A DNA stretch of 64,000 bases from Rhodospirillales bacterium (GCA_021775005.1 JAJFIK010000075.1:11086-75085), one strand, 5' to 3'. Positions 11,963-42,692 are shown, counted from the first letter of the stretch. Translations and numbers: made by a program. The notes: generated by a model not told the origin, from the letters alone.

Positions 11963-12129
11963 TCACCAGCGAAGCACCGCGGAACCTCATACCACTTGCC
12001 ATCACTCAATGATTGGCTTGATGCTCAAGCGGTTCGATAAAAAAGGGTACACCGCAGCTCTCGCGGCACCTTACTCATCGGTTGGTGGAACTGTAACGCC
12101 CCTAACAAGCGATGAACAGTTACTCTGAG

Positions 12130-12687
12130 TTACTGGGCCATGCTTGCAGCGACGGCCGCCAAGCCAGACTCATAAACTCCCGTTAGGGCATCGATGACAT
12201 CTTGCTCGTGGCCTTCATTTGCATTGTAGACACTGGTCCAGGTGACTGTGGACACTCCTGATCCATCATCATCAACGCTTAACGTGCTGGTGTAATCGGT
12301 GAACGGCAGCGGGCTGGACAGGATTGTGTAAGTATAAGTGTACGCCCCATCGTCTCTGGCGGTCTGCAGTTCAACAAACGTTGCTTGACCATCTGCGGTC
12401 ACAAGCGTCCGGGTCGGCGGCGTATTCCCGTCTTCTTCACAGGTGCCGATGGCGGGGTGCCAATCTTGCACCGAGCAGAACGAGCCAATCATTGCCCACA
12501 CGGCAGATGGCGCGGCCTCAACATCGACGGTACGCGTAAAGGATTCTGACGGCCCGGGTGCGGCGCACGCGCTTAGCACAACAAAGATGCCGACGGACGC
12601 TGCTACCTTCAACGAGCCAAAACCTAATGACTGCTTCCGCGAGGATGTTTCAACTTTTCCTGACAGGATTTTTTGATTCATATTCAT
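12130..12687 (-). CDS. SRPBCC (Bet v1/polyketide cyclase-like) family lipoprotein
   Basis: Signal peptide with lipobox VVLSAC. The C-terminal 140 aa are paralogous to the neighbouring SRPBCC protein. Confidence 0.55.
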   Translation of the reverse strand: MNMNQKILSGKVETSSRKQSLGFGSLKVAASVGIFVVLSACAAPGPSESFTRTVDVEAAPSAVWAMIGSFCSVQDWHPAIGTCEEDGNTPPTRTLVTADGQATFVELQTARDDGAYTYTYTILSSPLPFTDYTSTLSVDDDGSGVSTVTWTSVYNANEGHEQDVIDALTGVYESGLAAVAASMAQ

Positions 12688-12852
12688 GCTGTGATCCCCA
12701 TGATTGTTGGGCTCCCTGATAATTTAAAGGGGCCGGTGAGTAAACATAACACATTGACAGTACCTGCAAGCAAGGCGAGTGCTCCTGAGAAAGCAACTGG
12801 TGTATTTTTTAGCATCGGGTAACCTCTTGCTCAGGATTGTACTTAGGACGGA

Positions 12853-13287
12853 CTAGTTGAATTTTTTGGCCAACAGGCCCAACAGACCCGCGTAAAGCGG
12901 GTCGCAAAAGCCTTTGACATCGCCCTTCGCACGCTCCCAATCTGATGACCACTCGACGAAACATTGTCCGGTGGCGGTAATTGGCGCGACGCGCGCTTTG
13001 CCGATATATCCCCACACCTGATCTGCAGATAGAACATCGGGTCCATCATCGATCGAATAGCTAAATGCCATTGAATCATCGTCAAAACTTTGAAGCGTTT
13101 CGGTGATGGCACCATTGACCAGACGCACGGCACCGACTTCTGTGCCGTTCTTTCCGTTCAAATTTTCAACGCTTTCTATGACGCCCTCGGCCCAGAACAT
13201 GTCATTGAAATTGCGCAACGCCGACCAAACCTGATCGGCTGATGCATTCACAATGATCGAGTTGTACGTTCCCATTTTCAACCTCAT
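12853..13287 (-). CDS. SRPBCC family protein (polyketide cyclase/dehydrase-like)
   Basis: 144 aa beginning MGTYNSIIVNASADQVWSALRNF, typical of the SRPBCC ligand-binding fold. Confidence 0.6.
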   Translation of the reverse strand: MRLKMGTYNSIIVNASADQVWSALRNFNDMFWAEGVIESVENLNGKNGTEVGAVRLVNGAITETLQSFDDDSMAFSYSIDDGPDVLSADQVWGYIGKARVAPITATGQCFVEWSSDWERAKGDVKGFCDPLYAGLLGLLAKKFN

Positions 13288-13387
13288 TTCACGGTTCCCT
13301 AGGCTTTGTCGCGTTGGGATGTGTCAAGGTTGCCTGAAATGAAGTTCCCTATGTATCGGGAGTTCTCCCTATTTTCTCAAGAAACGG

Positions 13388-14917
13388 TCAGTCCATTACA
13401 ATGCCATGCTCAAGCGCGAGCAACGCCAATGCGGGACGAGCATTTACGCCGGTTTTCCTATAGATTTTCTGGATGTGATGGTCGGCGGTTTTGGGCGAGA
13501 TGTTCAATACTTCTGCAATTTGCGCTGTCGATTCAGACATCGCCAGCCGGGCTAATACTTGAACCTCACGCCGCGTCAGATCAAATGGATAGGCCGCCAT
13601 GACGTCCTTGACCTTGTGGCCAGCCGCTTGCAAGACGGCAGTCACGGCGGCAGGTAGGAATTTTTTATCGACCGCAGCAGCCGTCATCCGTTTTGCGGCT
13701 TCTTTGGGATCCAGCGCCTTGCTTGCGGGAGTGGAATTTGTCAGCTCATCATATTCGTTTGCGACGGCCAGAATGTTGCAGGCCAAGTCCGGTAATGCCA
13801 CGCGGCGATGATAGCCACTGCCGTCCGCACGTTCCTGCACGCAAGATGCAATTCGTGACCAAGCGGCAAATGGCTCACCATGAGACAGTACATACTCTGT
13901 TTGGAACGAGTGTCTTTGCATCTCAATTCGCTCTGATACGCTGAGCTCAGCGGCCTTGTACCAAATGCGGTTCGAAATCGCACATTTTCCAATGTCATGA
14001 ACTAACGCGGCGAGCCGCAAAGTCTCCACCTGATCGTTAGGAAGTCCTGCCAATTTCGCCGCCGAAGCAGTTAGGCTCGCAACCCGGCGCGAATGGCTGC
14101 GGAAGTGGCTCGCCTTGTGGTCGGTCATATCCGCACCGACCTCAGCCAGAGTCTGCCGGCAGGTTGGCGTCATTTTGATCGGCTCGCCGGGCTCGGCGGC
14201 AATAAATGACTCGAACTCTGGCGTCCTGCTTGCGGTCGCAAAAATGTCGTCAGCATGGTCCAAAAATGCCTGCCCAAGTTCGGGGTCCAACTCCACACCC
14301 CGTTTCGCCGCTACCACTTTTTTTGCTTGCTCGGCGTCTTCCAGGCGCCTGACCAACTCGGCCATCTCAGTGATCCGCACCAGGCGCGACAGAGATGGTA
14401 CGTCGGGACCGCCAAAGGGCAGTACTTTGCCGTCCCACCTGGCATAGTAATAGGGGATGCACTCAAGCACCGCCTCGGAGACTGGTAGCCGCCGGGCCAG
14501 TAAATAGGACTGCCGGCAATGGGCCGCTGTAAAATCGGGCGCAGCGCCCGGCAGGATATCGCAAATGTGGTTGAATGCTTTGTCCCTGTCTTCGGTCGTG
14601 GCATCTTGCGCGATGTACTGGCTCAAGAACTTTTTCAAATCCTCGCGGTCGGTCCAGTCGCCTAGCATGGTGGCCACAGCGAAGCCCTGATCATCGCCAA
14701 TCGATAGCAGCCCAGTTTCGTGACTGGTGATCGTGCAGCCAATAAACCTGACGGTGGCCAGAAAATATGCATCCTTTTGGGTTTGGAGATCCAAGCCTAG
14801 CTTCTTAGCAAACTCCGCAGTTACGATGGCTGCGGTTAGACCGGAACCACTGGGCCGGCCTGTGGCCATGTCAGCGGCCAAGGCCAACACGCCCAAGCCT
14901 TCAGAAATAGTCGGCAT
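13388..14917 (-). CDS. LuxR-family transcriptional regulator with two tandem degenerate HD-GYP-like domains
   Basis: The second domain has LAALVHDIGK (HD motif) and ERADGSGYHRR (HHExxDGxGYP with GYP changed to GYH). The first domain is degenerate (LALAADMATGRP; YYARWDGKVLPFGG). The C-terminal LuxR HTH reads REVQVLARLAMSESTAQIAEVLNISPKTADHHIQKIYRK. Confidence 0.7.
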   Translation of the reverse strand: MPTISEGLGVLALAADMATGRPSGSGLTAAIVTAEFAKKLGLDLQTQKDAYFLATVRFIGCTITSHETGLLSIGDDQGFAVATMLGDWTDREDLKKFLSQYIAQDATTEDRDKAFNHICDILPGAAPDFTAAHCRQSYLLARRLPVSEAVLECIPYYYARWDGKVLPFGGPDVPSLSRLVRITEMAELVRRLEDAEQAKKVVAAKRGVELDPELGQAFLDHADDIFATASRTPEFESFIAAEPGEPIKMTPTCRQTLAEVGADMTDHKASHFRSHSRRVASLTASAAKLAGLPNDQVETLRLAALVHDIGKCAISNRIWYKAAELSVSERIEMQRHSFQTEYVLSHGEPFAAWSRIASCVQERADGSGYHRRVALPDLACNILAVANEYDELTNSTPASKALDPKEAAKRMTAAAVDKKFLPAAVTAVLQAAGHKVKDVMAAYPFDLTRREVQVLARLAMSESTAQIAEVLNISPKTADHHIQKIYRKTGVNARPALALLALEHGIVMD

Positions 14918-15155
14918 GCCTACCTCCCTTGGTCTTGTGCAAATCGACCTGTCGGCACGGCCTAACGAGGATCAAATTCATTGCAACGTCACACCCAACA
15001 GAGAATGTAAATTTAAACGGCCGCTCTATCCATACACACATTTCGGGCCGCCAGTGCCCAAAAAAATACCCCCTAGAGATCAGGCCCGCAACAAACTAGC
15101 ATTGGAGCGGGCTCAATGATCGGCAACAAGCTGAAGATCGGCCGGGGAAAGGGCG

Positions 15156-17783
15156 GTGGATGTCATAGGCGACAAACTGATTTCATTGCCTGAAGGCGCG
15201 AGCGATACCGTCCCCACCAAGTATTGGGAGCGGCTGGATGATGGGCGCGTGATGTGCACCCTGTGCCCGCGCGCATGCAAAATGAAAGACGGCCAGCGCG
15301 GCCTGTGCTTTGTCCGCAAGGCGCAAGGCGGCGAAGTTGTCATGACCAGCTATGGCCGCTCATCTGGATTTTGCATCGACCCGATTGAGAAAAAGCCCCT
15401 CAACCACTTTCTGCCCGGCACGCCGGTGCTTTCCCTTGGCACCGCGGGGTGTAACCTTGCCTGCAGCTTCTGCCAAAACTGGGATATTTCCAAAGCACGG
15501 CAGATGGACCGGGTGCAGGACCTCGCCCAACCGGAAATGATTGCAAAGGCCGCCAAGGAAACCGGCTGTCGCTCAGTTGCGTTTACCTATAACGACCCGG
15601 TTATTTTCATGGAGTACGCGATTGATATCGCACAGGCCTGCCGGGAATTGGACATCAAAACGGTAGCAGTGACCGCTGGATACATGAACGATGCGCCCCG
15701 GGCTGAGTTCTTTAAGTATATGGATGCGGCGAATGTCGATCTGAAAGCCTTTACCGAGGATTTCTATTGGCGCCAAACCAAGGGCGCGCTCAAACCCGTT
15801 CTGGATACGCTCACATACCTCAAGGAGCACACCAATGTCTGGTTCGAGGTCACCACCCTTTTGATCCCGGATGAAAATGATAGCTCGAAGGAATTACGCG
15901 CACAGTGCGAATGGATGATGAAAAATCTGGGGCCCGACGTGCCGCTGCATTTTTCAGCCTTTCATCCCGATTATCGCATGCGAGATAAATCCCGCACGCC
16001 GCCCGAAACGCTTAAACGCGCCCGCGGCATCGCCCGGGAAATCGGGTTGCGCCACGTCTATACGGGCAATATCCACGATGAAGAAGGCGGCACCACCTAT
16101 TGCCACAGTTGCGCTGAGACGCTCATCGTGCGGGATTGGCATCTCATTAAACACTGGGCGTTAAGCGATGACGGCAAATGCAAAAAATGTGACACGGCCC
16201 TGGCAGGGGTGTTTGATGGCCCGCCGGGCAAGTGGGGCCGCAAGCGTACGCCCATCCGCATCGGGCCCGCTGGCGCAATGGTGGCTCAACCTGTCAGTCC
16301 GCGCACCATGGCCGCAAAGAATGCCACAAAGGAAGAGCTCAGCCGCAGCTATCAACCGATGAAGAATACCAACTACAGTATCAAGCAGCCGCAGGTGGCC
16401 GGAAAGTTCTATCCATCAGACGCGGGGACTCTGGCCAATACTGTTGACCAGCTATTGCAGTCTGCGCCGTCTCCGCAAATGCAGCCCAAGGCCATTATCG
16501 CGCCCCATGCCGGATACCAGTATTCCGGCAAGATCGCCGCGCGGGCCTTTAACAGTCTAGGCAACCGAAAGTCCGACATTCGCCGCGTGGTTTTGTTCGG
16601 CCCGCCCCACCGCAAAGCTGTGAAGGGCATTGCAGTGCCCAGCTACCAGATCTTTGCCACACCGCTTGGCCCCGTCAGCGTCGACCGCGGCGCGATTGAG
16701 AAACTCAAAGTTCTCCCATTTGTCGCCGAGGACGATAGCCCGTTCGAAAATGAACACGGGCTGGAAGTGCATCTGCCATTCCTGCAGCGCGTATTTGAAA
16801 ATGTCGAAATCGTCCCCGCCCTTGTGGGCGGAATTTCGCCGGGGCAAGCTGCCCAGGCCCTGCGCACGGTTTGGGGCGGTGATGAAACGCTGATCCTGAT
16901 CTCATCGGACCTCAGTCACTTTCACGACTACGACAAAGCCTCGAAAACGGACAATGCGGCGGCGGCGGCGATTGAAACATTACGCTCCGGCCAGTTGGGC
17001 GAAGACCAGGCCTGCGGTCGCCACGCCGTACGCGGGCTTCTGCTCGAATCCATCCATCACAATCTGCGCGCCACCACTATCGATTTGTGCAATTCAGGCG
17101 ACACTGCAGGCAACAAGGATCGCGTGGTCGGCTATGGCGCGTTTGTGTTTGAGCCTTCTGACAAGGCCCGCCTCCCGGAGGCTTCGGCCAAGGTCCTGCT
17201 GGATGTTGCCAGGCGTGTGGTCATCAAGGGCGCTGAGATCGGCGAGATGCCGAAACTCAATGTCCGCGACATGCCGCGATTGTTAATGGCATGGCGGCCA
17301 ACTTTTACCACCATCACAAATGGCGGCAAACTGCGCGGATGCTACGGCAGCTTTGTCGCGACCCAACCCTTGATCAATGACGTGGCCAAAAGTGCATACG
17401 CGGCCGCGTTTAAGGACTCCCGTTTCAAACCGATGACAATGGCGGAGCTGGCGCGGGCGGAACTGGGCCTGTCGATCCTTTCGGTCGCCTACCGCTTCCC
17501 GGTCAAGGACGAGGATGATTTGCTTGGCCAAGTGCGCCCAGGGATAGACGGACTGATTATGCGCGATGGGGGGCAACAGGGCCTGTTCTTGCCGTCGGTC
17601 TGGGAGCAGTTGAAGACCCCCGAGGCCTTTATCAAAGGCCTTAAACGTAAAGCGGGGCGGCCTGAGAATTACTGGTCAGACTCGCTGGAAATCTATCGCT
17701 TCACGGCAGAGAAAATCAGCGCTGTTCCGATTGTAACAGAGGCATTGGCACCTGCCGCTACTGTCCCTTCGGCGACAAAGTAG
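15156..17783 (+). CDS. AmmeMemoRadiSam system tri-domain fusion: radical SAM enzyme + MEMO1-like (protein B) + AMMECR1 domain
   Basis: The N-terminal part has CX3CX2C (GCNLACSFCQNW) plus an upstream Cys cluster CTLCPRACK. The middle part has the MEMO1 signature IIAPHAGYQYSG, beginning around 16359. The C-terminal part has the AMMECR1 signature GGKLRGCYGSF. The 875-aa ORF has no internal stops. Confidence 0.8.
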   Translation: MDVIGDKLISLPEGASDTVPTKYWERLDDGRVMCTLCPRACKMKDGQRGLCFVRKAQGGEVVMTSYGRSSGFCIDPIEKKPLNHFLPGTPVLSLGTAGCNLACSFCQNWDISKARQMDRVQDLAQPEMIAKAAKETGCRSVAFTYNDPVIFMEYAIDIAQACRELDIKTVAVTAGYMNDAPRAEFFKYMDAANVDLKAFTEDFYWRQTKGALKPVLDTLTYLKEHTNVWFEVTTLLIPDENDSSKELRAQCEWMMKNLGPDVPLHFSAFHPDYRMRDKSRTPPETLKRARGIAREIGLRHVYTGNIHDEEGGTTYCHSCAETLIVRDWHLIKHWALSDDGKCKKCDTALAGVFDGPPGKWGRKRTPIRIGPAGAMVAQPVSPRTMAAKNATKEELSRSYQPMKNTNYSIKQPQVAGKFYPSDAGTLANTVDQLLQSAPSPQMQPKAIIAPHAGYQYSGKIAARAFNSLGNRKSDIRRVVLFGPPHRKAVKGIAVPSYQIFATPLGPVSVDRGAIEKLKVLPFVAEDDSPFENEHGLEVHLPFLQRVFENVEIVPALVGGISPGQAAQALRTVWGGDETLILISSDLSHFHDYDKASKTDNAAAAAIETLRSGQLGEDQACGRHAVRGLLLESIHHNLRATTIDLCNSGDTAGNKDRVVGYGAFVFEPSDKARLPEASAKVLLDVARRVVIKGAEIGEMPKLNVRDMPRLLMAWRPTFTTITNGGKLRGCYGSFVATQPLINDVAKSAYAAAFKDSRFKPMTMAELARAELGLSILSVAYRFPVKDEDDLLGQVRPGIDGLIMRDGGQQGLFLPSVWEQLKTPEAFIKGLKRKAGRPENYWSDSLEIYRFTAEKISAVPIVTEALAPAATVPSATK

Positions 17784-20561: not shown

Positions 20562-20895
20562 AGTATTTTCCGGGGTTATAGCTCAGGGCATTTGTGTGCC
20601 ATCGGAGCGGTTTATCAGTGATACCGGCGGTGCAGCCCAAGCCCTATGCAAGTCCAATCAGCTCCAAGCGGCGGCCATGGCGCAACCATAATGCTGACAA
20701 AGGGGCGGCAAACGGCAGCTTACCGCCTTTTTCCTGGAAAACATAACGCGCGTTAACGCGGCGCGCCCTCGGGCTGCAATTCTAATTAATCTTTATCATT
20801 TATCCTGACGGCAACCGATCAATTTGCGTGGCGAATATTTTTCACTGCAACAGAATTCACTGCAGGCGCCTGAAGCGCGCCCCAAGGAGGCGAAC

Positions 20896-23800
20896 GTGCA
20901 AACAGAACCGCGCGGTACACAAAAAAAGTATTTCAGCCCGCATCTACTGTCACTGCTTTCGAATCCACTCAGCGTTTTCTGCATATTATCGACCATTGGC
21001 ACGGTCGTTCTCCTTGCTGCGGTTTATTTTGTCGACACCGAACGCAAGCATGAGGCTGAACAGCTTGCGCGTCTTGCGCTATCAACTGTTTCCAACAGCT
21101 TCGCCGCAGAAATGGGCTCCTACTACGACGATATTATGATAATGTCGCGCACGGTTTCGACTTTGGACTTCATCAGAGAGCCGTCCGTTGAGTCGCGTCG
21201 ACATGCGGAACTTTCGCTCTTTGCTCTTGCCCAATCACACGTTGATTATATGCAACTTCGCTACATTGATGCGAGCGGACAAGAACAGATACGCGTCGAT
21301 AGAACTGGTGATAGGGTTGAAGTCGTTTCCGGTTCAGACCTTCAGAACAAGTCTAGCCGCGCGTATTTTCAGCACTCAGTCAATCTTGACCGCGGCGAAA
21401 TTTTTGTTTCCGAGTTGGATCTAAACGTTGAGCAAGGGGCCGTTCAGGTGCCCTGGCATCCTACGTTACGCATCGCAACTCCCATCTTTGCCGAAAGCGG
21501 CGAGCGTACCGGCGTCGTCGTTTTGAACATTTCAACTGCGGGCATTATTGGACAGATTCAGAACCCGCTGGTGAACCCGCATGTGCAAGTTTATCTCGCC
21601 AACGACCAAGGGTATTGGATCGGCGGGCGGGCGGACGAAGAGCTGTGGGGATTCATGTTTGGGCGGGAAGCCGTCGCGCAACAAGCCTTTGAGGGTGAAG
21701 TATGGCAGGCCGCACAAAACAGTCGCAGCGGCCTGGTGTGGCAAGGTGCCTCCCTGTTTTCCCATACCTGGCTTGACCCCGTTACACCCGAAACAAACAC
21801 GCCAGATGCGGTTGAAATTTTACCGGTTGAACGTTGGTTGCGGATCGCAAAGTTTCCCAACGTGGGACAATCGATTCTCGTCACGCCGGTGGTTTGGGGT
21901 ATCTGGCTGGTCATGCTTTTCGCCTTCGCCCTGACAAGCTGGAAAGTCAAGGAGGTAAATGACCAGCGCCGTGAAGTTTTGCTGCGGGAGCGCTTCCTAC
22001 AAACACTGATCGACAGCGCACCCGACGCGGTGATCACCATTGATGAAGCCGGGAAAATCACATCTTTCAGCCGCGCGGCGGAAAATATGTTCGGCTATTC
22101 CGAGCAAGAAGTAATTGGGCAGCCGGTGTCAATGCTGATGCCCGATGCCCTGGCGCAAAATCATCAGTCCTATATTACCAAGTATCTCAGCGCCCCCAGC
22201 TTTGCGCCCTCGGCAACGCGCCAAGCGCGCGAACTCATCGCGCAGCAAAAAAGCGGCAAGCAGATGCCGATTGGCCTGAACCTCGGCGACCTTGGTAGCG
22301 GCCAGGTCGGCCGTTTTGTTGCTATTATCCGCGACATTACCGAGCAGAAACAAGCCGAAGCGGATCTGACCCTCCGGCAACGTGAAGCGGAGATTGCCAA
22401 CAAGGCCAAATCCGCATTTCTTGCCAATATGAGCCACGAATTGCGAACACCGCTTAATGCGATCATCGGTTACAGCGAGATGCTGCTTGAAGAGGCCGAG
22501 GACGAAGAACAGAACGCGTTCGCTCCCGATCTGCAGCGCATCCGGCGCGCCGGGCGGCACTTGCTGGCCCTGATCAACGACGTGCTTGATCTTTCCAAGA
22601 TCGAAGCCGGAAAACTGGAACTCACTCCGGTAGATTTCAATCTTTCCGCGCTGGTGGAAGAAATCGAGAGCACATCAAAGTTCCTCGCCGACAAAAACAA
22701 TAATGTCCTGAATATCCAACAAGACCTATGCGGCCTCGCCACAGTTCGCGCCGATGAAATGAAGGTACGGCAGATCCTGTTCAATCTGGTCAATAATGCC
22801 TGCAAGTTCACCGTTGATGGCGAAATTTCCGTGATGATCAGCGCTGATCCCGCCGCGTCCAGGCTGAATTTTTCCGTGTCCGACACGGGGATTGGCATGA
22901 GCGAAGATTACCTCAAGAAACTCTTCACCGAGTTCTCCCAGGAAGAAAACCACATGCGCAAACAATTCGAGGGGACGGGCCTCGGACTCGCGATCTGCAA
23001 GAAGTTCGTCGAAATGATGGGTGGTGAGATCGCGGTCCAATCCACGAAAGACAAAGGCACGACTTTCTCCATCTGGGTGCCGTTTGAAGAGGCATCCGAA
23101 AAAGGTTCCGGCGCTCGTTCCAAATTCACCGCTTACCCCGCTCATGCCCCGCTTTTGGAGGGGCGCGAAGAACTCTTTGACGGACTTACGGTGCTTGTGG
23201 TCGATGACGACCCGAACGCGCGCGATCTTGTGACGCGCTATCTCATGCGCGAGGGGCTTCAGGTGGCGACCGCGTCCAGCGGCCGCGAAGGCCTGGCAAT
23301 GGCTGAAAAACTCCAACCCGATGCCATCGTTCTTGATCTAATGATGGATGATATGACGGGCTTTGAGGTTCTTGGGCGGCTCAAAAGCTCTTCCGATCTA
23401 AACGCCATTCCCGTTGTCATTTGTTCAATCATGGATGAGAAGGAACATGGCATTGCACTTGGCGCCGTGGATTATATGACCAAGCCCTTCGATGGGGATC
23501 AATTGATGATCACGCTCGAAAGGCACCTATTACCTGATTCAAACGCATCGATTCTGATCATCGAGGATGATAGGGATGCGCGGGATATTATGTCCCGCCA
23601 AGTGGCAAGCCTGGGGTTTGACGTCGTTGCCGCAGAGAACGGGGTCGTCGCCTTTGAACGGCTGCAGAACATGGACATCCCCGCGCTTATTCTTCTTGAT
23701 CTGATGATGCCGGAAATGAACGGATTTTCATTCCTGAATAATTTGCGAGACATTCCCGCGTATGACGACGTTCCCGTCATCGTCGTTTCCGCAAAGGAAT

Positions 23801-23955
23801 TGAGCGAGGAGGAGCGGCAACAACTCGTCTTGGATACCGAGCAAATCATCGAGAAGGGATCGGGCGACTTGAACGACTCGCTACGCAAGCTCCGCGGGTA
23901 TCTCTTCAAGAGTCTCAAAAACACAGGAAAAAAATCCAGGAAGGACGCAGCATGA
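20896..23955 (+). CDS. hybrid sensor histidine kinase (periplasmic Cache-like sensor, PAS, HisKA/HATPase, two C-terminal REC domains)
   Basis: Two TM segments flank a periplasmic domain of about 280 aa. PAS and the H-box MSHELRTPLN are followed by HATPase G-boxes and two receivers. AAGGAGG lies 5 nt upstream of GTG 20896; the ORF extends to 20824. Confidence 0.8.
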   Translation: MQTEPRGTQKKYFSPHLLSLLSNPLSVFCILSTIGTVVLLAAVYFVDTERKHEAEQLARLALSTVSNSFAAEMGSYYDDIMIMSRTVSTLDFIREPSVESRRHAELSLFALAQSHVDYMQLRYIDASGQEQIRVDRTGDRVEVVSGSDLQNKSSRAYFQHSVNLDRGEIFVSELDLNVEQGAVQVPWHPTLRIATPIFAESGERTGVVVLNISTAGIIGQIQNPLVNPHVQVYLANDQGYWIGGRADEELWGFMFGREAVAQQAFEGEVWQAAQNSRSGLVWQGASLFSHTWLDPVTPETNTPDAVEILPVERWLRIAKFPNVGQSILVTPVVWGIWLVMLFAFALTSWKVKEVNDQRREVLLRERFLQTLIDSAPDAVITIDEAGKITSFSRAAENMFGYSEQEVIGQPVSMLMPDALAQNHQSYITKYLSAPSFAPSATRQARELIAQQKSGKQMPIGLNLGDLGSGQVGRFVAIIRDITEQKQAEADLTLRQREAEIANKAKSAFLANMSHELRTPLNAIIGYSEMLLEEAEDEEQNAFAPDLQRIRRAGRHLLALINDVLDLSKIEAGKLELTPVDFNLSALVEEIESTSKFLADKNNNVLNIQQDLCGLATVRADEMKVRQILFNLVNNACKFTVDGEISVMISADPAASRLNFSVSDTGIGMSEDYLKKLFTEFSQEENHMRKQFEGTGLGLAICKKFVEMMGGEIAVQSTKDKGTTFSIWVPFEEASEKGSGARSKFTAYPAHAPLLEGREELFDGLTVLVVDDDPNARDLVTRYLMREGLQVATASSGREGLAMAEKLQPDAIVLDLMMDDMTGFEVLGRLKSSSDLNAIPVVICSIMDEKEHGIALGAVDYMTKPFDGDQLMITLERHLLPDSNASILIIEDDRDARDIMSRQVASLGFDVVAAENGVVAFERLQNMDIPALILLDLMMPEMNGFSFLNNLRDIPAYDDVPVIVVSAKELSEEERQQLVLDTEQIIEKGSGDLNDSLRKLRGYLFKSLKNTGKKSRKDAA

Positions 23956-27031: not shown

Positions 27032-28264
27032 TTGGTGGAGTTTTTTGTGGGAAACACATCGCCTTCAGCTCGTGCACTCATCTTGGATGATGAGTTCGAG
27101 ATTCGGGAGCTCCTGAATGAAGTGGTTTCTGAGGTCGGGTACGACGTGGTCGAAACCGATAGTGCGGAAGTGTTTTTTTCCCAGATCGAAGAGTTCGATC
27201 CCACCATCGTTTTCGTCGACCTGATGATGCCGGACATCGACGGTGTAGAGATTCTGCGGCAGCTCGGTGAGCGGCGCGTCAAATGCGGCATCGTCATCAT
27301 GAGCGGCGCGCATTCCAAAATCCTCTCGACCGCCAGTGACCTTGGCAAGAAGCATGGGCTTCAGATCAAGAAGTGCCTCAGCAAACCGATTGACGTGAAC
27401 AGCCTGCAAAACGATCTGCTGCAGTGGCGCGGATCGGAACTCACCCCGACAATACAAGAGATACGGTCAGGCCTGGCAAAAGGCGAATTCGAACTGCACT
27501 TGCAGCCCAAGATTCAGGTCAAACGCGCCTTTGGCTTTCCCATCGACTCCGCCGAAGGGCTGATACGTTGGCACCACCCCGCGCAGGGGACGCTTCTGCC
27601 CGCCAAATTCCTCGGCTTGATGGAGGAAAGCGGCCTGATGGGCGAGCTCACGGATTATGTGCTGAAACAGGCCATCGGAATCGCTAAAGCGCTAAAGGAA
27701 GTCAATTCCGATATTTCCCTCGCCGTCAATATTCCCGCAGAGTCGTTCGAGGAGAGCGGCTTTGTCGACAACCTGACGACCGATGTTGTCGCAGCTGGCC
27801 TTCAACCTCAGGCGTTCACGCTGGAGGTAACGGAGCGGGCACGGGTTTCGGAGAACGCGGATACGCTTGAGAATCTGACAAGGTTTCGCCTCAAAGGCTT
27901 CGGCCTTTCCATGGATGACTTTGGTACGGGATTTTCGTCCCTTGTCGATCTTCACCGCCTTCCCTTCAACGAGCTGAAGATGGATCGCGCCTTCATCGCG
28001 TTGATCGATGAAAGCAAAGAGTCCCGGGCCATCGTGAGTGCCCTCACCGGCCTTGCCAGGACTCTGGGGCTTTCTGTCTGTGCCGAGGGGGTCGAGACCT
28101 ATGGAACGCTCGAGTTTCTCGAAAATATTGATTGCCATTCCGCACAGGGGTTCTTCATATCAAAAGCGCTTCCCTTTGAAGATTTTCTCGCCTTCAAGAG
28201 ACATTGGGAAAGCCGCTGGGCTAATACCGACTTCCAACCAAATGAAATCGAAGCCACGCAATAG
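27032..28264 (+). CDS. response regulator with EAL domain (putative c-di-GMP phosphodiesterase)
   Basis: REC domain ALILDDEFEIRELL...VFVDLMMPDIDG, then EAL-type motifs ELHLQPKIQ and DDFGTGFSSL. The ORF begins with TTG at 27032. GTG at 27035 or 27050 is also a possible start. Confidence 0.75.
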   Translation: MVEFFVGNTSPSARALILDDEFEIRELLNEVVSEVGYDVVETDSAEVFFSQIEEFDPTIVFVDLMMPDIDGVEILRQLGERRVKCGIVIMSGAHSKILSTASDLGKKHGLQIKKCLSKPIDVNSLQNDLLQWRGSELTPTIQEIRSGLAKGEFELHLQPKIQVKRAFGFPIDSAEGLIRWHHPAQGTLLPAKFLGLMEESGLMGELTDYVLKQAIGIAKALKEVNSDISLAVNIPAESFEESGFVDNLTTDVVAAGLQPQAFTLEVTERARVSENADTLENLTRFRLKGFGLSMDDFGTGFSSLVDLHRLPFNELKMDRAFIALIDESKESRAIVSALTGLARTLGLSVCAEGVETYGTLEFLENIDCHSAQGFFISKALPFEDFLAFKRHWESRWANTDFQPNEIEATQ

Positions 28265-28393: not shown

Positions 28394-29095
28394 TTAGTAT
28401 TTAGTTGGATATGTCTCATCAAACGCATAGCCGGCGGAGCGCACAGTACGGATGGGATCTTTCTCGCCCGGCTCATTAAGTGCCTTGCGCAAGCGGCCCA
28501 CATGAACATCAACGGTTCGGTCTTCGACATAGATGTCTGAGCCCCAAGCTGCGTCAAGTAGTTGTTCCCGCGTAAAAACACGCCCCGGATGACCAAGGAA
28601 GTGTTCGAGCAAGCGATATTCGGTTGGGCCGAGACGAATGTTGCGCGCACCCCGCCGCACCCGATGACAGGAGCGGTCGAGTTCGATATCGCCAAAGGTA
28701 ATCAAATCCTCAGCGGCAGCCGGTCGCACGCGGCGCATGATGGCGCGGATGCGCGCCAAAAATTCCGGCATCGAAAACGGCTTGGTGATATAGTCATCCG
28801 CACCAATGTCCAGCCCCCGCACACGGTCCGCTTCTTCACTACGCGCCGTCAGCATGATGATGGGAAGGTTGGCGGTCTCAGTTCGTTGCCGCAGGCGGCG
28901 GCAAATTTCCAGACCCGAGAACTGCGGCAGCATCCAGTCCAGGACGGCGAGGTTCAGCTCTTCTTCTTCCGCCAGCAGCATGGCTTCCTCACCACCACCG
29001 GCTTGCAAGACGCGGTAGCCCTCGCTTTCCAGATTGTAGACAAGCAGCGTCATCAAATCCGTATCGTCTTCAACCACAAGCACATTGGGTTTCAT
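28394..29095 (-). CDS. phoB: phosphate regulon response regulator PhoB (OmpR family)
   Basis: REC plus winged-helix domain, positioned after phoU in the pst operon. Confidence 0.85.
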   Translation of the reverse strand: MKPNVLVVEDDTDLMTLLVYNLESEGYRVLQAGGGEEAMLLAEEEELNLAVLDWMLPQFSGLEICRRLRQRTETANLPIIMLTARSEEADRVRGLDIGADDYITKPFSMPEFLARIRAIMRRVRPAAAEDLITFGDIELDRSCHRVRRGARNIRLGPTEYRLLEHFLGHPGRVFTREQLLDAAWGSDIYVEDRTVDVHVGRLRKALNEPGEKDPIRTVRSAGYAFDETYPTKY

Positions 29096-29100
29096 GGCGG

Positions 29101-29835
29101 CTACCCGTTCTGATCTTCGGCATCAGGCGAAGGGTGCACGCCTGCGAAATCTTCAGGTGCCCCTTTGGGGCGGCTCTCAGCCAGGTACTGCCCTTCTTGA
29201 ATGAAATAAATCGTTTCGGCAATCTTGGTTGCGTGATCGCCGATGCGTTCCAAATTCTTGGCAATGAACAAAAGATGGGTACACAGACCAATCGTGCGCG
29301 GGTCTTCCATCATATAGGTCAAAAACTCCCGCAACAAAGAATTGTACAGCTCGTCAATGTCTTCATCCTGCGCCCAGACGTTCATCGCCGCGGCCACGTC
29401 GCGCGTGACATAAGCGTCGAGCACATCCTTGAGCTGGACGAGCGATTGCCGCCCCATGCGCACAAGACCTTTGGTCAGGCTAACGGGTTCCTGCCGGTTC
29501 AGCACCAGCGCACGCTTGGCGACGTTTTTGGCCAAATCACCGATGCGTTCCAGATCTGAGGCGATTTTGATCGGTCCCATGATCTCTCGTAAATCCCGGC
29601 CCATGGGTTGGCGGAGCGCCAAAGTTTGCACTGCGGCGGCATCGACCTCCTGTTGGAGAAGGTTGATCTGATCATCTTTCTCAACAGTCTTTGAAGCCAG
29701 GGCCGAATCTCTGCGTGAGATAGCACTCAAGGCGTTTGCCACTTGTTCCTCGGCAAGCCCGCCCATTTGCGCGATCTGCGCGGACAGGCTTTCCATTTCA
29801 TCATCAAGCGTTATGTGAGGCGTGTTGACCATCAA
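29101..29835 (-). CDS. phoU: phosphate signalling complex protein PhoU
   Basis: Two PhoU repeats with RIGDHATKIAE/RIGDLAKNVA motifs. Confidence 0.85.
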   Translation of the reverse strand: MMVNTPHITLDDEMESLSAQIAQMGGLAEEQVANALSAISRRDSALASKTVEKDDQINLLQQEVDAAAVQTLALRQPMGRDLREIMGPIKIASDLERIGDLAKNVAKRALVLNRQEPVSLTKGLVRMGRQSLVQLKDVLDAYVTRDVAAAMNVWAQDEDIDELYNSLLREFLTYMMEDPRTIGLCTHLLFIAKNLERIGDHATKIAETIYFIQEGQYLAESRPKGAPEDFAGVHPSPDAEDQNG

Positions 29836-40961: not shown

Positions 40962-42692
40962 TCAAGTTGAAGCTGCAACACTACCGGTGTTGCCCTTAAC
41001 CGAATCGTGATCGATTTTCCTGCGCCACCAATCTAGGAAAGGCTTTGGTGCCAACGGTCGACAATAATGAAAACCCTGTGTGCCGGAACATCCAAAATCA
41101 TGCAGCACTGTTGATAGGTCCGAACTCTCGATTCCCTTTACTATGACGTCCATCTCAAATGCCTTACCGAGTCCAATCAATGCCCCAACTATGGAATCGT
41201 CTGAATCGCCTTCGCGATTCCATTTATGGTTGATCTTTACACGGTCAAACGGAAGGCTTTTTTGATCCACTAAGGATATTGCGCCCATACCAAAGTTATC
41301 CAACACAAGTTTAACTCCAAGCGTTTTTAGCCGCAAAAGTTCTGCGGTCACAATATCATTGTGACCCGTAATTGTGTCTTCAGAAAACTCCAATTCCAAG
41401 CAATTCAGGTTTACGTCGGAGTCAAAGACAGAGCCTCTTATGACTTCATAAAGATCACCCTTGCGAAGTTGAACTAACGAAATATTTATCGATACAAATA
41501 TTTTTGGAAGAGACATTTCATTCCACTCTCGAATGTGTTGGCACACTTGCTGGATTAGCCACGCGCCAATGGGGTGCACGAGACCGCTGTTCTCCGCAAC
41601 TTCCAAAAATTCAACTGGAAGTATCAAACCCCTTTCCGGGTGTTCCCATCGTAGTAGCGCTTCAACACCAATTACACTTCCACTCATTGGGTCAACAACC
41701 GGTTGAAAATGGACACGCAATTCGTCAGAATTGATTGCCTTAGCCAAGTCAGAAGCCAGTTCTTTTTGCATCTGCAATTTAGCGTTCATTTCACTCTCAT
41801 GAAATTGGACGGTTCCGCGGCAAATGTCCTTTGCGCGATAGAGTGCCATGTCCGCTTGTTTCAAAAGTAGATCCGAATTCTTATCGCCATGAGAGTACAT
41901 CGAAATCCCCACGCTAGCACCTGACTGAATTGACAAACCCTGAATGTCATATGGGTCACTCAATGCAGAAATAATTTTCCCCGCGAGAACTTCAGCACCG
42001 TGCGCATTATCTAAGTTGGTCGCCAAGACTGCAAACTCGTCACCACCCAAACGGGCGACGGTGTCTGTCTCCCGAACACACTTTTTCAATCGGTTCGATA
42101 CCTCAACGAGTAACGCATCCCCGACCAAATGGCCGTGCACGTCGTTGACATTTTTGAAATGATCCAAATCCAGAAGCAAAATGGCCAATGACCGCCCAAT
42201 GCGGTCCGCCTGTGATATCCCCTCATTCAACTGAGCCGCAAAATACGACCGATTTGCTAGACCGGTTAAGACATCATGTCGAGAAAGCTTTGTGAGCCGC
42301 TCCTCGTGGAAATGTCTTTCTTTCGCATAACGAATTGCACGCTCCAATAACGGAGCGTCTAGCCTTCCTTTGACTAAGTAGTCCGCTACACCAACCTCAG
42401 ATGCCTGAAGGTCCAGTTCAAAATTCTCCATGCCCGTAAGTATAATGAAAGGTGGTTGGTTTCCGAGGCGAATGGCTTCTCTCACCAAATCAAGGCCACT
42501 TCTCTCCCCGAGATGGTGGTCAACAAGGCATACATCAAAATCAAATTGATTCAGGGCTTCTTTAGCATCGCCCCAATCACTGATCCATTTAAGTTTAAAA
42601 TTTCCACCAAAGGCGTCACTCAACAAGCTTTTTGTAAGAAGAAAATCGTCTTCGTCATCCTCAATTAACAGAATTTTGTTTGAGCCTTTCAT
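40962..42692 (-). CDS. response regulator with GGDEF and EAL domains
   Basis: REC (ILLIEDDEDD), then GGDEF (RLGGDEF) and EAL (EALLRW) motifs. Low GC. Confidence 0.8.
   Translation of the reverse strand: MKGSNKILLIEDDEDDFLLTKSLLSDAFGGNFKLKWISDWGDAKEALNQFDFDVCLVDHHLGERSGLDLVREAIRLGNQPPFIILTGMENFELDLQASEVGVADYLVKGRLDAPLLERAIRYAKERHFHEERLTKLSRHDVLTGLANRSYFAAQLNEGISQADRIGRSLAILLLDLDHFKNVNDVHGHLVGDALLVEVSNRLKKCVRETDTVARLGGDEFAVLATNLDNAHGAEVLAGKIISALSDPYDIQGLSIQSGASVGISMYSHGDKNSDLLLKQADMALYRAKDICRGTVQFHESEMNAKLQMQKELASDLAKAINSDELRVHFQPVVDPMSGSVIGVEALLRWEHPERGLILPVEFLEVAENSGLVHPIGAWLIQQVCQHIREWNEMSLPKIFVSINISLVQLRKGDLYEVIRGSVFDSDVNLNCLELEFSEDTITGHNDIVTAELLRLKTLGVKLVLDNFGMGAISLVDQKSLPFDRVKINHKWNREGDSDDSIVGALIGLGKAFEMDVIVKGIESSDLSTVLHDFGCSGTQGFHYCRPLAPKPFLDWWRRKIDHDSVKGNTGSVAAST

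Follow-up and report, generated by a model that had tools for sequence, protein, structure and literature searches.

Degenerate GGDEF and EAL domains are well-known receptors of cyclic di-GMP (c-di-GMP). Receptors based on the HD-GYP phosphodiesterase domain have been demonstrated only recently, with DvhD in 2026, and no characterised HD-GYP-based transcription factor was found in the literature, where a single one-line mention from Streptomyces turned up. Here we describe a candidate for such a factor, encoded at positions 13388 to 14917 (minus strand) of a 64,000-nucleotide stretch of DNA from a Rhodospirillales bacterium (GCA_021775005.1 JAJFIK010000075.1:11086-75085), which was analysed over its whole length and is referred to below as the window. 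On balance, this protein, hereafter the regulator, is probably a one-component transcription factor that combines a catalytically dead sensor of HD-GYP descent with a LuxR-type helix-turn-helix (HTH), and whose predicted operator lies before a downstream cargo gene. Fold and homology, the loss of catalytic residues, the position of the operator and its co-variation with the recognition helix were each compared directly. A pseudoenzyme or effector domain fused to a transcription factor is a known kind of regulator; what appears to be new from these comparisons is a family-wide GYH signature, a gradient of active-site loss between clades, and a predicted operator that co-varies with the recognition helix.

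The closest described sensor is that of V-cGAP3 from Vibrio cholerae (VCA0931, 5z7c), which has the same order of a degenerate HD-type domain followed by an HD-GYP domain and is co-linear with the regulator end to end. V-cGAP3 is an active enzyme carrying HHE, GYP, KPG, RPYR and the last Asp, whereas the regulator has VQE, GYH, KAA, TPAS and Asn at these positions; furthermore, V-cGAP3 lacks a DNA-binding domain, whereas the regulator has an HTH. The regulator thus shows the layout of the tandem HD-[HD-GYP] subfamily but not its catalytically competent C-terminal HD-GYP domain. DvhD of Desulfovibrio vulgaris has, like the regulator, lost the HH ligands and carries Asn at the last-Asp position (PMC13090378). 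The two differ in what else has eroded, as DvhD has lost the HD dyad (SQ) and keeps GYP, KPG and R650/Y652 (PMC13090378), whereas the regulator keeps HD and has lost the others. DvhD is also a membrane receptor (dCache-PAS-HD-GYP) that acts on a periplasmic protease, not a transcription factor.

The nearest functional analogy is PdeL (YahA) of E. coli, in which a c-di-GMP phosphodiesterase-type domain and a LuxR HTH share one polypeptide that binds an imperfect palindrome (PMC5052742), and the analogy is closest for distant relatives of the regulator with intact sites (clade C, below). PdeL has the unrelated EAL fold, an N-terminal HTH and enzymatic activity, and its known target is its own promoter; the regulator, in contrast, has a C-terminal HTH, a putatively dead enzyme domain and a predicted operator downstream of its gene, before the cargo. 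Hengge suggested in 2016 that HD-GYP proteins could also act as trigger phosphodiesterases (PMC5052742), a definition that calls for an active phosphodiesterase and that the regulator, with its incomplete active site, does not match. VpsT and CsgD share the LuxR/GerE HTH output and are among the weak, HTH-only matches of the regulator. VpsT is a direct c-di-GMP effector, but both proteins sense through a REC-like domain and a W[F/L/M][T/S]R motif rather than an HD-type domain, and inspection of the regulator by eye found no VpsT-type W[FLM][TS]R motif. Only one published protein of comparable architecture was found, SLUN_31535 of Streptomyces lunaelactis, an 'HD-GYP-LuxR domain protein' called unique among 93 Streptomyces genomes (PMC6205966). 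Like the regulator, it joins an N-terminal HD-GYP domain without GYP to a C-terminal HTH_LuxR, and it probably falls within clade C of the regulator's family; it appears as a genome-survey mention that gives no function, ligand or target (PMC6205966). Literature searches turned up neither a characterised HD-GYP-HTH protein nor a description of the palindrome discussed below, and the HD-GYP census of Galperin & Chou mentions no LuxR, HTH, GerE, DNA-binding or tandem forms.

The regulator and its parts are laid out as follows:

13388..14917, minus strand: regulator coding sequence, 509 amino acids from an ATG start; pseudo-HD, then HD-GYH, then LuxR/GerE HTH
14222..14917, minus strand: domain 1, predicted pseudo-HD domain, residues 1-232; homologous to the N-terminal domain of V-cGAP3
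13673..14170, minus strand: domain 2, HD-GYP-derived and predicted to be non-catalytic, residues ~250-415 (best Pfam stretch 262-415)
13415..13579, minus strand: LuxR/GerE-type HTH, residues 447-501, with recognition helix SPKTADHHIQKIY (474-486)

A model that had read the DNA without database searches (the sequence-only reading) proposed two HD-type domains and a LuxR HTH with no receiver domain, and this architecture was borne out by Pfam, by alignment to V-cGAP3 and by fold comparison. Its open reading frame (ORF) and all the motifs that it quoted are found in the translation, namely LALAADMATGRP (residues 11-22), YYARWDGK (157-164), LVHDIGK (305-311) and ERADGSGYHRR (362-372), and NCBI holds a 100% identical protein (P0001). 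The Pfam HD-GYP-type model HD_5 matches in two stretches (E 8.4e-25, the better covering residues 262-415), which identifies domain 2 without ambiguity, the HD model also matches (E 9e-10), and GerE covers residues 447-501 with 48.5 bits against a cutoff of 23.5 (E 6.6e-13), while no Response_reg match was found at E<=1. No NCBIfam model attains its cutoff; the best, 'NosR-family response regulator PDE' (REC-HD-GYP), overlaps only through the HD-GYP part of the model, and NarL/NarP-type matches are confined to the HTH. An AlphaFold (AF2) model built from an alignment of 49 homologs has a mean predicted local distance difference test score (pLDDT) of 93.2 and a predicted template modelling score (pTM) of 0.89, and its best Foldseek match in the PDB is 5z7c (E 2e-13, template modelling (TM) score 0.71, 443 columns). 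DvhD (9rbz) is the second-best structural match, and the matches after V-cGAP3 are single HD-GYP domains: DvhD with c-di-GMP, PmGH, PA4781 and Bd1817. The HTH matches the DNA-binding domains of LiaR, DegU, VraR and GerE with a root-mean-square deviation of ~1.1-1.8 Å, and R450, E451, T477, H481, K488 and R494 within it are invariant in the family alignment.

Domain 1 lacks the HD dyad, as the sequence-only reading had noted, with RFIGC where HDIGK is expected. A phmmer alignment nonetheless joins residues 5-408 of the regulator to residues 23-432 of V-cGAP3 across both HD-type domains (E 1.4e-24), with domain 1 aligned to residues 23-230 of 5z7c. Within the regulator itself the tandem is hard to see, as BLAST detected no similarity between its N- and C-terminal halves and hhalign gave a weak match between domains 1 and 2 (P 0.0025), although in the correct register (ADMATG...RFIGC against ADMTDH...HDIGK). 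Because this direct comparison of the halves is null or weak, the tandem call rests on V-cGAP3, on the fold match and on a sub-threshold HD_5 match to domain 1 alone (E 0.075, 13 bits, over its C-terminal half). Judged by these comparisons, domain 1 is a pseudo-domain of the V-cGAP3 or HD-[HD-GYP] kind, and the description of the sensor as a tandem of HD-GYP-type domains holds. A14, D16, G60, C61, C134, G163, R178, D211 and P212 are conserved in domain 1 and common to V-cGAP3; C61 (100%) and C134 (97%) are conserved across the regulator family, and both are also found in the N-terminal domain of V-cGAP3. C61, encoded at ~14735-14737, occupies the Lys position of HDIGK, and C134, encoded at ~14516-14518, adjoins a His that aligns with a metal ligand; the two cysteines may form a redox or metal site.

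Domain 2, which matches 4mcw, 4r8z and 9rbz in the PDB, was compared residue by residue in an alignment of 116 family members with V-cGAP3 and PmGH, from which pocket geometry was also deduced. It retains H275, H307-D308, K311, H336, E362-R363, D365-G366 and G368-Y369, whereas the HH pair has become V360/Q361, GYP has become GYH370, the last Asp N387, KPG K321-A-A, and RxxK T396-P-A-S399. The di-metal centre of PmGH is held by H189, H221, D222, H250, H276, H277 and D305; the equivalents of H276/H277 are V360/Q361 and that of D305 is N387, which leaves the ligand set of the regulator incomplete. Full retention of the metal ligands, named by the sequence-only reading as a sign of an enzyme rather than a sensor, is thus not observed. 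Since the second-metal HH ligands, the last Asp, KPG and Rxx(K/R) are all lost, domain 2 would be non-catalytic, and we consider loss of catalysis very likely. Proteins with comparable losses (HnoD, ECA3548 and DvhD) are experimentally inactive, as is Bd1817, which has Asn at the last-Asp position (PMC8177086). The sequence-only reading had claimed this loss from the presence of GYH beside an intact LVHDIGK dyad. The dyad and the GYH are there, and alignment to HD-GYP references shows that degeneration goes further than supposed (VQ, N387, KAA and TPAS), but GYH itself occurs in 115 of the 116 members, with Pro in V-cGAP3 and PmGH, so that on these alignments it is a signature of the family and not a lesion of this gene.

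The family divides into clade C, with less than 42% identity (n=56), and the query clade, made up of clade A (n=53) and clade B (n=7; n=60 together), and the active-site positions follow this division:

HH pair: clade C, 41-42 of 56; clades A and B, first His 0 of 60, with the second His in 16 of 53 in clade A
Last Asp (position 387): clade C, Asp or Glu in 51 of 56; clades A and B, Asn in 60 of 60
KPG: clade C, 46-47 of 56; clade A, Gly in 0 of 53
R396: clade C, 56 of 56; clade A, 0 of 53; clade B, 1 of 7
R399: clade C, 55 of 56; clades A and B, 53 of 60

The canonical c-di-GMP-type Rxx(K/R) motif, as RPxR, is therefore present in clade C. Position 399, the equivalent of PmGH K317, is Arg in 93% of the family, and Ser (codon at ~13721-13723) is unique to the regulator among the 116, with Lys400 next to it. 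Near-invariant across the family are H275, H307, D308, H336, E362, R363, D365, G366, G368, Y369 and H370, and a set of polar residues is fixed in clade A (K311, R330, Q339, H346, N381, N387 and D390). H346 and D390 reach 100% in the clade, and Q339, N381, R330 and H394 are likewise newly conserved polar positions. The two HD-type domains are roughly equal in conservation.

Downstream of the regulator gene lies an inverted repeat that we predict to be its operator, followed by two genes for SRPBCC proteins on the same strand:

13355..13372, minus strand: predicted operator, inverted repeat A-TAGGGA-GAAC-TCCCGA-T, 17 bp past the regulator stop codon
13346..13351, minus strand: third copy of the TAGGGA half-site, spaced two helical turns (20 bp) downstream from the first operator arm
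13296..13301, minus strand: fourth TAGGGA half-site, ~21 bp upstream of the probable SRPBCC_a start, of uncertain significance
12853..13287, minus strand: cargo gene 1, SRPBCC_a, longest ORF 144 amino acids; Pfam Polyketide_cyc2 (2.8e-15)
12130..12687, minus strand: cargo gene 2, SRPBCC_b, 185 amino acids; Pfam Polyketide_cyc2 (4.6e-24)
12049..12069, minus strand: terminator-like hairpin and T-run past SRPBCC_b

The operator centre is ~88 bp upstream of the probable SRPBCC_a start codon, and 13355-13372 is the single exact match to TAGGGA-N4-TCCCKAT in the 64 kb window. In the spacer past the stop codon of 10 clade-A loci, the sole invariant block is A-ATAGGGA-N4-TCCC(G/T)AT-C, with fixed arms and a variable centre. 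A scan of 88 loci (1.13 Mb), in which a site was a match at >=10 of 12 arm positions, returned 49 sites, 33 of them within 0-250 bp past the stop codon of the regulator homolog, a zone that makes up 1.9% of the sequence; 5 further sites overlap that stop codon. Two of the 49 sites belong to L082/83, where the SRPBCC gene lies 2.1 kb from the regulator; there the operator has moved along with it and stands 95 bp upstream of the SRPBCC gene. Sites were found in Alphaproteobacteria, Actinomycetota, Chloroflexota, Gemmatimonadota, Acidobacteriota and a metagenome-assembled genome labelled Bacteroidota.

The presence and sequence of the site track the recognition helix. Helices of the type KTxDxx[IVT]Q, to which that of the regulator belongs (SPKTADHHIQ), have the operator in 33 of 39 loci, as against 5 of 45 for other helices (p=4e-12), and within this type TAGGGA accompanies His or Asn at the position following the Asp (25 of 26), while TGGGGA accompanies Arg (7 of 7; TA in 25 of 26 versus 0 of 7, p=2e-6), although both statistics ignore shared ancestry. 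At least two Arg-helix lineages that differ in their cargo show the pairing, and a further helix, KTVEHHVGH, pairs with TAGGGG. By its position and its co-variation with the recognition helix, the palindrome is predicted to be the operator of the regulator family, and we take the transcription factor, its operator and the link to the cargo to be well supported by comparison, with good confidence.

The rest of the spacer holds further, less regular features. TAGGGA occurs 13 times in the window, three times in the 100-bp spacer between the regulator and SRPBCC_a. The third half-site (CATAGGGA / CATGGGGA) also occurs in L001, L002, L081, L088 and L089, and the fourth shows no conservation when the spacers are aligned. 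A second, semi-conserved block (CCTGAnnTCAACGGCGGCAAC...GCCnCCGGG) stands at 13302-13340 (minus strand), past the operator and ahead of the ribosome-binding site, and has equivalents in L001, L002, L005, L081, L084, L088 and L089, loci with different cargo (ABM versus SRPBCC). This block can form a short GC-rich stem, for which the L084 version is apparently compensated, and may represent either a promoter or a structured leader. Roughly half of the family, in clade C (L011, L014, L017, L020, L023, L025-L030, L033-L036 and others), has different recognition helices (RTAEHHVQH, KTAGNHIER, KTVGRHVEN, DTVKHHIQH and others) and no TAGGGA-N4-TCCC site past the gene; these members presumably use other operators.

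The probable start of SRPBCC_a is the ATG at 13275, which is served by a GAGG ribosome-binding site and coincides with the starts of its homologs. A 76% identical orthologue lies directly past the regulator in L002, and the same order is found in L088 and L089; the PDB match is 3p51, an uncharacterised structural-genomics protein (E 7e-31). SRPBCC_a has no signal sequence. SRPBCC_b resembles XoxI/MxaD (PDB 3cnw, XoxI, 1.9e-17), and homologs of it lie directly past the operator in L004, L008 and L013. Its translation begins with a lipoprotein-type signal and lipobox (...VVLSAC...), and the protein is probably exported. The hairpin past SRPBCC_b is the only terminator-like element that consensus scans found on this strand across the three-gene block, and a single transcript may cover the regulator, SRPBCC_a and SRPBCC_b, with a promoter inside it under the control of the operator.

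Across the family the gene behind the operator varies:

SRPBCC: 10 loci, the window included
ABM/DUF1330/EthD: 5 loci, plus second genes in L088 and L089
SnoaL: 3 loci
FMO-type flavin monooxygenase: at least 2 loci
Single occurrences: acyl-CoA ligase, amidase, methyltransferase, DsrE and a 1611-aa cadherin-like protein
No Pfam match: ~11 loci

In 24 of 36 loci, 55-101 bp separate the operator centre from the start codon of the cargo gene downstream, a placement that suggests an activator site rather than a core-promoter repressor site, although the regulator may instead act there as a repressor or as a roadblock to read-through. The upstream neighbours of the regulator differ at every locus compared and the AmmeMemoRadiSam gene that diverges from it in the window is never adjacent elsewhere, so that the conserved unit is regulator, operator and cargo. 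The sequence-only reading had named the adjoining SRPBCC genes as possible targets, which fits the place of the predicted operator in front of SRPBCC_a. It had also pointed to the divergent region at 14918-15155 as the DNA on which to assay binding, and here the data speak otherwise: the conserved site is at 13355-13372, motif and hexamer scans found no operator upstream of the regulator gene, and the hexamer scan found no TAGGGA in 14918-15155 or between the two SRPBCC genes.

The cassette shows some traces that may bear on its history. The GC content dips to 0.49-0.51 at 12500-13500 (SRPBCC_a and the operator spacer), compared with 0.56-0.61 in the flanks, and integrase or transposase fragments adjoin the cassette in L087 and L082. 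Together with the variable upstream neighbours, these features hint at horizontal movement.

The regulator belongs to a large family. A word-indexed search found 214 proteins of the same ~510-aa HD_5+GerE layout, an exhaustive profile-free search at least 467 cluster representatives at 50% identity (E<=1e-30, nearly all full length), and the peptide pattern ERxDGSGYH at least 587 relatives in reference genomes. Carriers of this peptide are mostly Actinomycetota and Chloroflexota, with Acidobacteriota, Gemmatimonadota, Myxococcota and a branch of marine Alphaproteobacteria; the nearest named relatives are Thalassovita, Yoonia, Boseongicola, Actibacterium, Pararhizobium sp. IMCC21322 and Maricaulis. 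A metagenome scan for near relatives gave 2 useful loci. As far as sequence comparison can tell, this is a real and widespread family of HD-GYP-derived transcription factors that is experimentally uncharacterised.

We propose a V-cGAP3-type ancestor for the sensor half, namely a tandem HD-[HD-GYP] phosphodiesterase of cyclic dinucleotides. In the marine alphaproteobacterial clade, domain 2 would no longer hydrolyse any substrate, yet selection would have maintained it and reshaped it into a receptor pocket, whose occupancy would shift the geometry of the two HD-type domains and thereby alter how the HTH dimerises on the operator. The predicted binding site of the LuxR HTH, which presumably acts as a dimer, is ATAGGGA-N4-TCCC(G/T)AT immediately 3' of the regulator gene. 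From the place of the predicted operator before the cargo gene, we infer that the regulator controls SRPBCC_a, and probably the co-oriented SRPBCC_b, and not the divergent AmmeMemoRadiSam gene.

What the pocket binds is the least certain part of this proposal. By analogy with DvhD, the single most likely ligand would be c-di-GMP or a related guanine dinucleotide (pGpG), bound without a di-metal centre, an assignment that we put forward tentatively. Domain ancestry speaks for it, as does the intact c-di-GMP-type site that clade C carries on the same chassis, and in DvhD an HD-GYP domain with HD changed to SQ and HH to MN binds c-di-GMP free of metal, leaves it unhydrolysed and undergoes a conformational switch (PMC13090378). 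DvhD contacts c-di-GMP through Y523, L577, K582, Y621, M646, R650, Y652 and E668 (PMC13090378); after mapping through a phmmer alignment, with the offset checked at five residues, the counterparts of L577, K582, Y621 and M646 in the regulator are the conserved L325, R330, Y369 and L392. Position 330 is basic only in the query clade and is Trp in PmGH and V-cGAP3; in the same mapping, the position of H271 is variable among homologs. Binding of c-di-GMP by the regulator is plausible. The prediction of the sequence-only reading that it senses c-di-GMP, however, is not backed by residue conservation in the query clade, as the guanine and phosphate contacts are intact just in distant members.

A number of observations weigh against this proposal. 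DvhD R650 and Y652 correspond to T396 and A398 in the regulator. HD-GYP domains owe their specificity for c-di-GMP to R314/K317 (PmGH numbering), KPG backbone contacts and metal-bound phosphates (10.1101/2021.11.05.467447, 10.1101/600031), and it is the equivalents of R314/K317, KPG and the metal ligands that are lost in the regulator, which is also alone in the family in having Ser at the Arg399 position that is 93% conserved. The cargo (SRPBCC, ABM/DUF1330 and SnoaL proteins, flavin monooxygenases and hydrolases) is not a typical c-di-GMP output, GGDEF/EAL genes show no enrichment around family members, where they stand at background density (4 of 89 loci, 1.14 Mb), and on the side of the operator a consensus scan of the spacer found no convincing sigma-70 promoter.

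The same factor and operator could serve a sensor that reads another kind of cue connected with the cargo. This cue may be a metabolite of hydrophobic or aromatic nature that the SRPBCC, SnoaL, ABM or flavin-monooxygenase proteins handle, or else a redox or metal signal, taken up by the residual H275/H307/D308/N387 site or by the Cys61/Cys134 pair. The loss of guanine and phosphate contacts while new polar residues became invariant in the clade would fit such a change of ligand, as would cargo that consists almost entirely of small-molecule-binding or oxygenase-type proteins and the background density of GGDEF/EAL genes. In one-component systems, neighbouring genes for enzymes or binding proteins usually relate to the ligand. 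The family-wide conservation of C61 and C134, shared with V-cGAP3, is compatible with a redox or metal signal, and a single-metal H..HD..D/N site remains; Bd1817, which has Asn there, binds iron (PMC8177086). Distant members with the same operator, HTH and cargo types nevertheless keep HH, D, KPG and RPxR, complete c-di-GMP-type sites that make a nucleotide the more parsimonious ligand of the family; DvhD demonstrates that a degenerate HD-GYP domain can bind c-di-GMP free of metal, and the regulator has conserved four of the contacts used there. A non-nucleotide ligand is not known for any HD-GYP domain, and we regard this alternative as possible but doubtful. A sensor blind to any signal, in which the HD-type domains are a dimerisation scaffold or a protein-contact surface of a constitutive or partner-controlled regulator, for instance with the GYH loop touching a partner in the way that the GYP of RpfG contacts GGDEF proteins, is unlikely. 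HD-GYP proteins that lack activity are known to work by contacting other proteins, the GYP loop has been implicated in GGDEF binding (PMC8177086), and GYH persists unchanged even in members whose site has otherwise eroded, but the near-invariance of H275, H307, D308, H336, E362 and D365 deep in the pocket and the fixation of new polar pocket residues would not be expected of a scaffold, and no conserved partner gene accompanies the cassette at the loci compared.

Still less probable, and in our view very improbable, is that the regulator is an active trigger enzyme like PdeL that couples hydrolysis of c-di-GMP or cyclic GMP-AMP (cGAMP) to DNA binding. It retains the HD dyad, H275, H336, E362 and Tyr369, and its closest solved relative is an active phosphodiesterase; alanine substitutions in GYP hardly alter activity in other enzymes (PMC8177086), and both PdeL, as a precedent for LuxR-plus-phosphodiesterase logic, and Hengge's HD-GYP proposal (PMC5052742) lend the idea a frame that may well suit clade-C relatives with complete sites. 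For the regulator, however, it would have to accommodate the loss of both HH ligands, of KPG and of Rxx(K/R), an Asn in place of the last Asp as in the inactive Bd1817, and the inactivity of HnoD, ECA3548 and DvhD with comparable HH losses. The palindrome, for its part, could be a hairpin or terminator at the 3' end of the regulator mRNA, or the site of another factor, as it stands directly past the stop codon and its symmetric changes (TAGGGA/TCCCTA to TGGGGA/TCCCCA) would keep a hairpin. As an RNA element it makes a poor candidate and was rejected: the stem has 4-8 bp around a 4-nt loop, several minimum-energy folds omit it, a U-tract is not consistently present, and neither a terminator call nor an Rfam match was obtained. 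The arms are invariant and the spacer variable, the L082/83 site stands 2.1 kb from the regulator and yet just before the SRPBCC gene, and site presence and second base track the recognition helix, all of which makes this reading very improbable compared with that of an operator.

If these strands are taken together, a broader picture can be sketched, although it is speculative and we hold it with low confidence: a portable regulator-operator-cargo cassette present in at least 6 phyla would represent the first family of HD-GYP-derived transcription factors, in which intact members are trigger phosphodiesterases and the alphaproteobacterial branch is a pseudoenzyme that reads a ligand other than c-di-GMP through the remodelled pocket (R330, Q339, H346, N381, N387 and D390), Cys61/Cys134 or both. 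If true, this would link a nucleotide-enzyme ancestry to the control of SRPBCC, ABM and SnoaL-type proteins. On one regulatory chassis, active sites in the family grade naturally from apparently complete ones to others that are clearly dead, which offers a ready-made system for studying how a phosphodiesterase becomes a sensor. Because operator and target gene are now predictable from sequence, the questions of ligand and of activator or repressor are directly testable, and the pairing of helix and operator reveals specificity-switch variants. It also provides a regulatory handle on SRPBCC, ABM/DUF1330 and SnoaL proteins that are widespread in marine and soil bacteria.

Several other genes in the window had been brought into connection with the regulator:

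15156-17783, plus strand: AmmeMemoRadiSam triple fusion, a single 875-aa ORF
20824-23955, plus strand: hybrid histidine kinase with HK_sensor_dom_bact, PAS, HisKA, HATPase and two REC domains
27032-28264: REC-EAL gene
40962-42692: REC-GGDEF-EAL gene

The AmmeMemoRadiSam ORF unites radical SAM (TIGR04337, 637 bits), protein B/Memo (TIGR04336) and protein A/AMMECR1 (TIGR04335) parts. The sequence-only reading was right to place this fusion beside the regulator, but the pairing is not conserved, and we rejected the gene as a partner or target, as it is adjacent in 0 of 80 homolog loci and 14918-15155 holds no operator or half-site; the sole inverted repeat there, at 15084-15112, is unrelated to the operator. 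The c-di-GMP enzyme genes that it listed are present as REC-EAL and REC-GGDEF-EAL, 12-26 kb from the regulator, whereas its CHASE kinase matches HK_sensor_dom_bact and PAS, with no CHASE domain at the threshold used. An ORF at 28562-29113 (plus strand), for which Pfam gave no match at E<=1e-5, encodes 183 amino acids with an HDxG[KR] motif just downstream of the REC-EAL gene.

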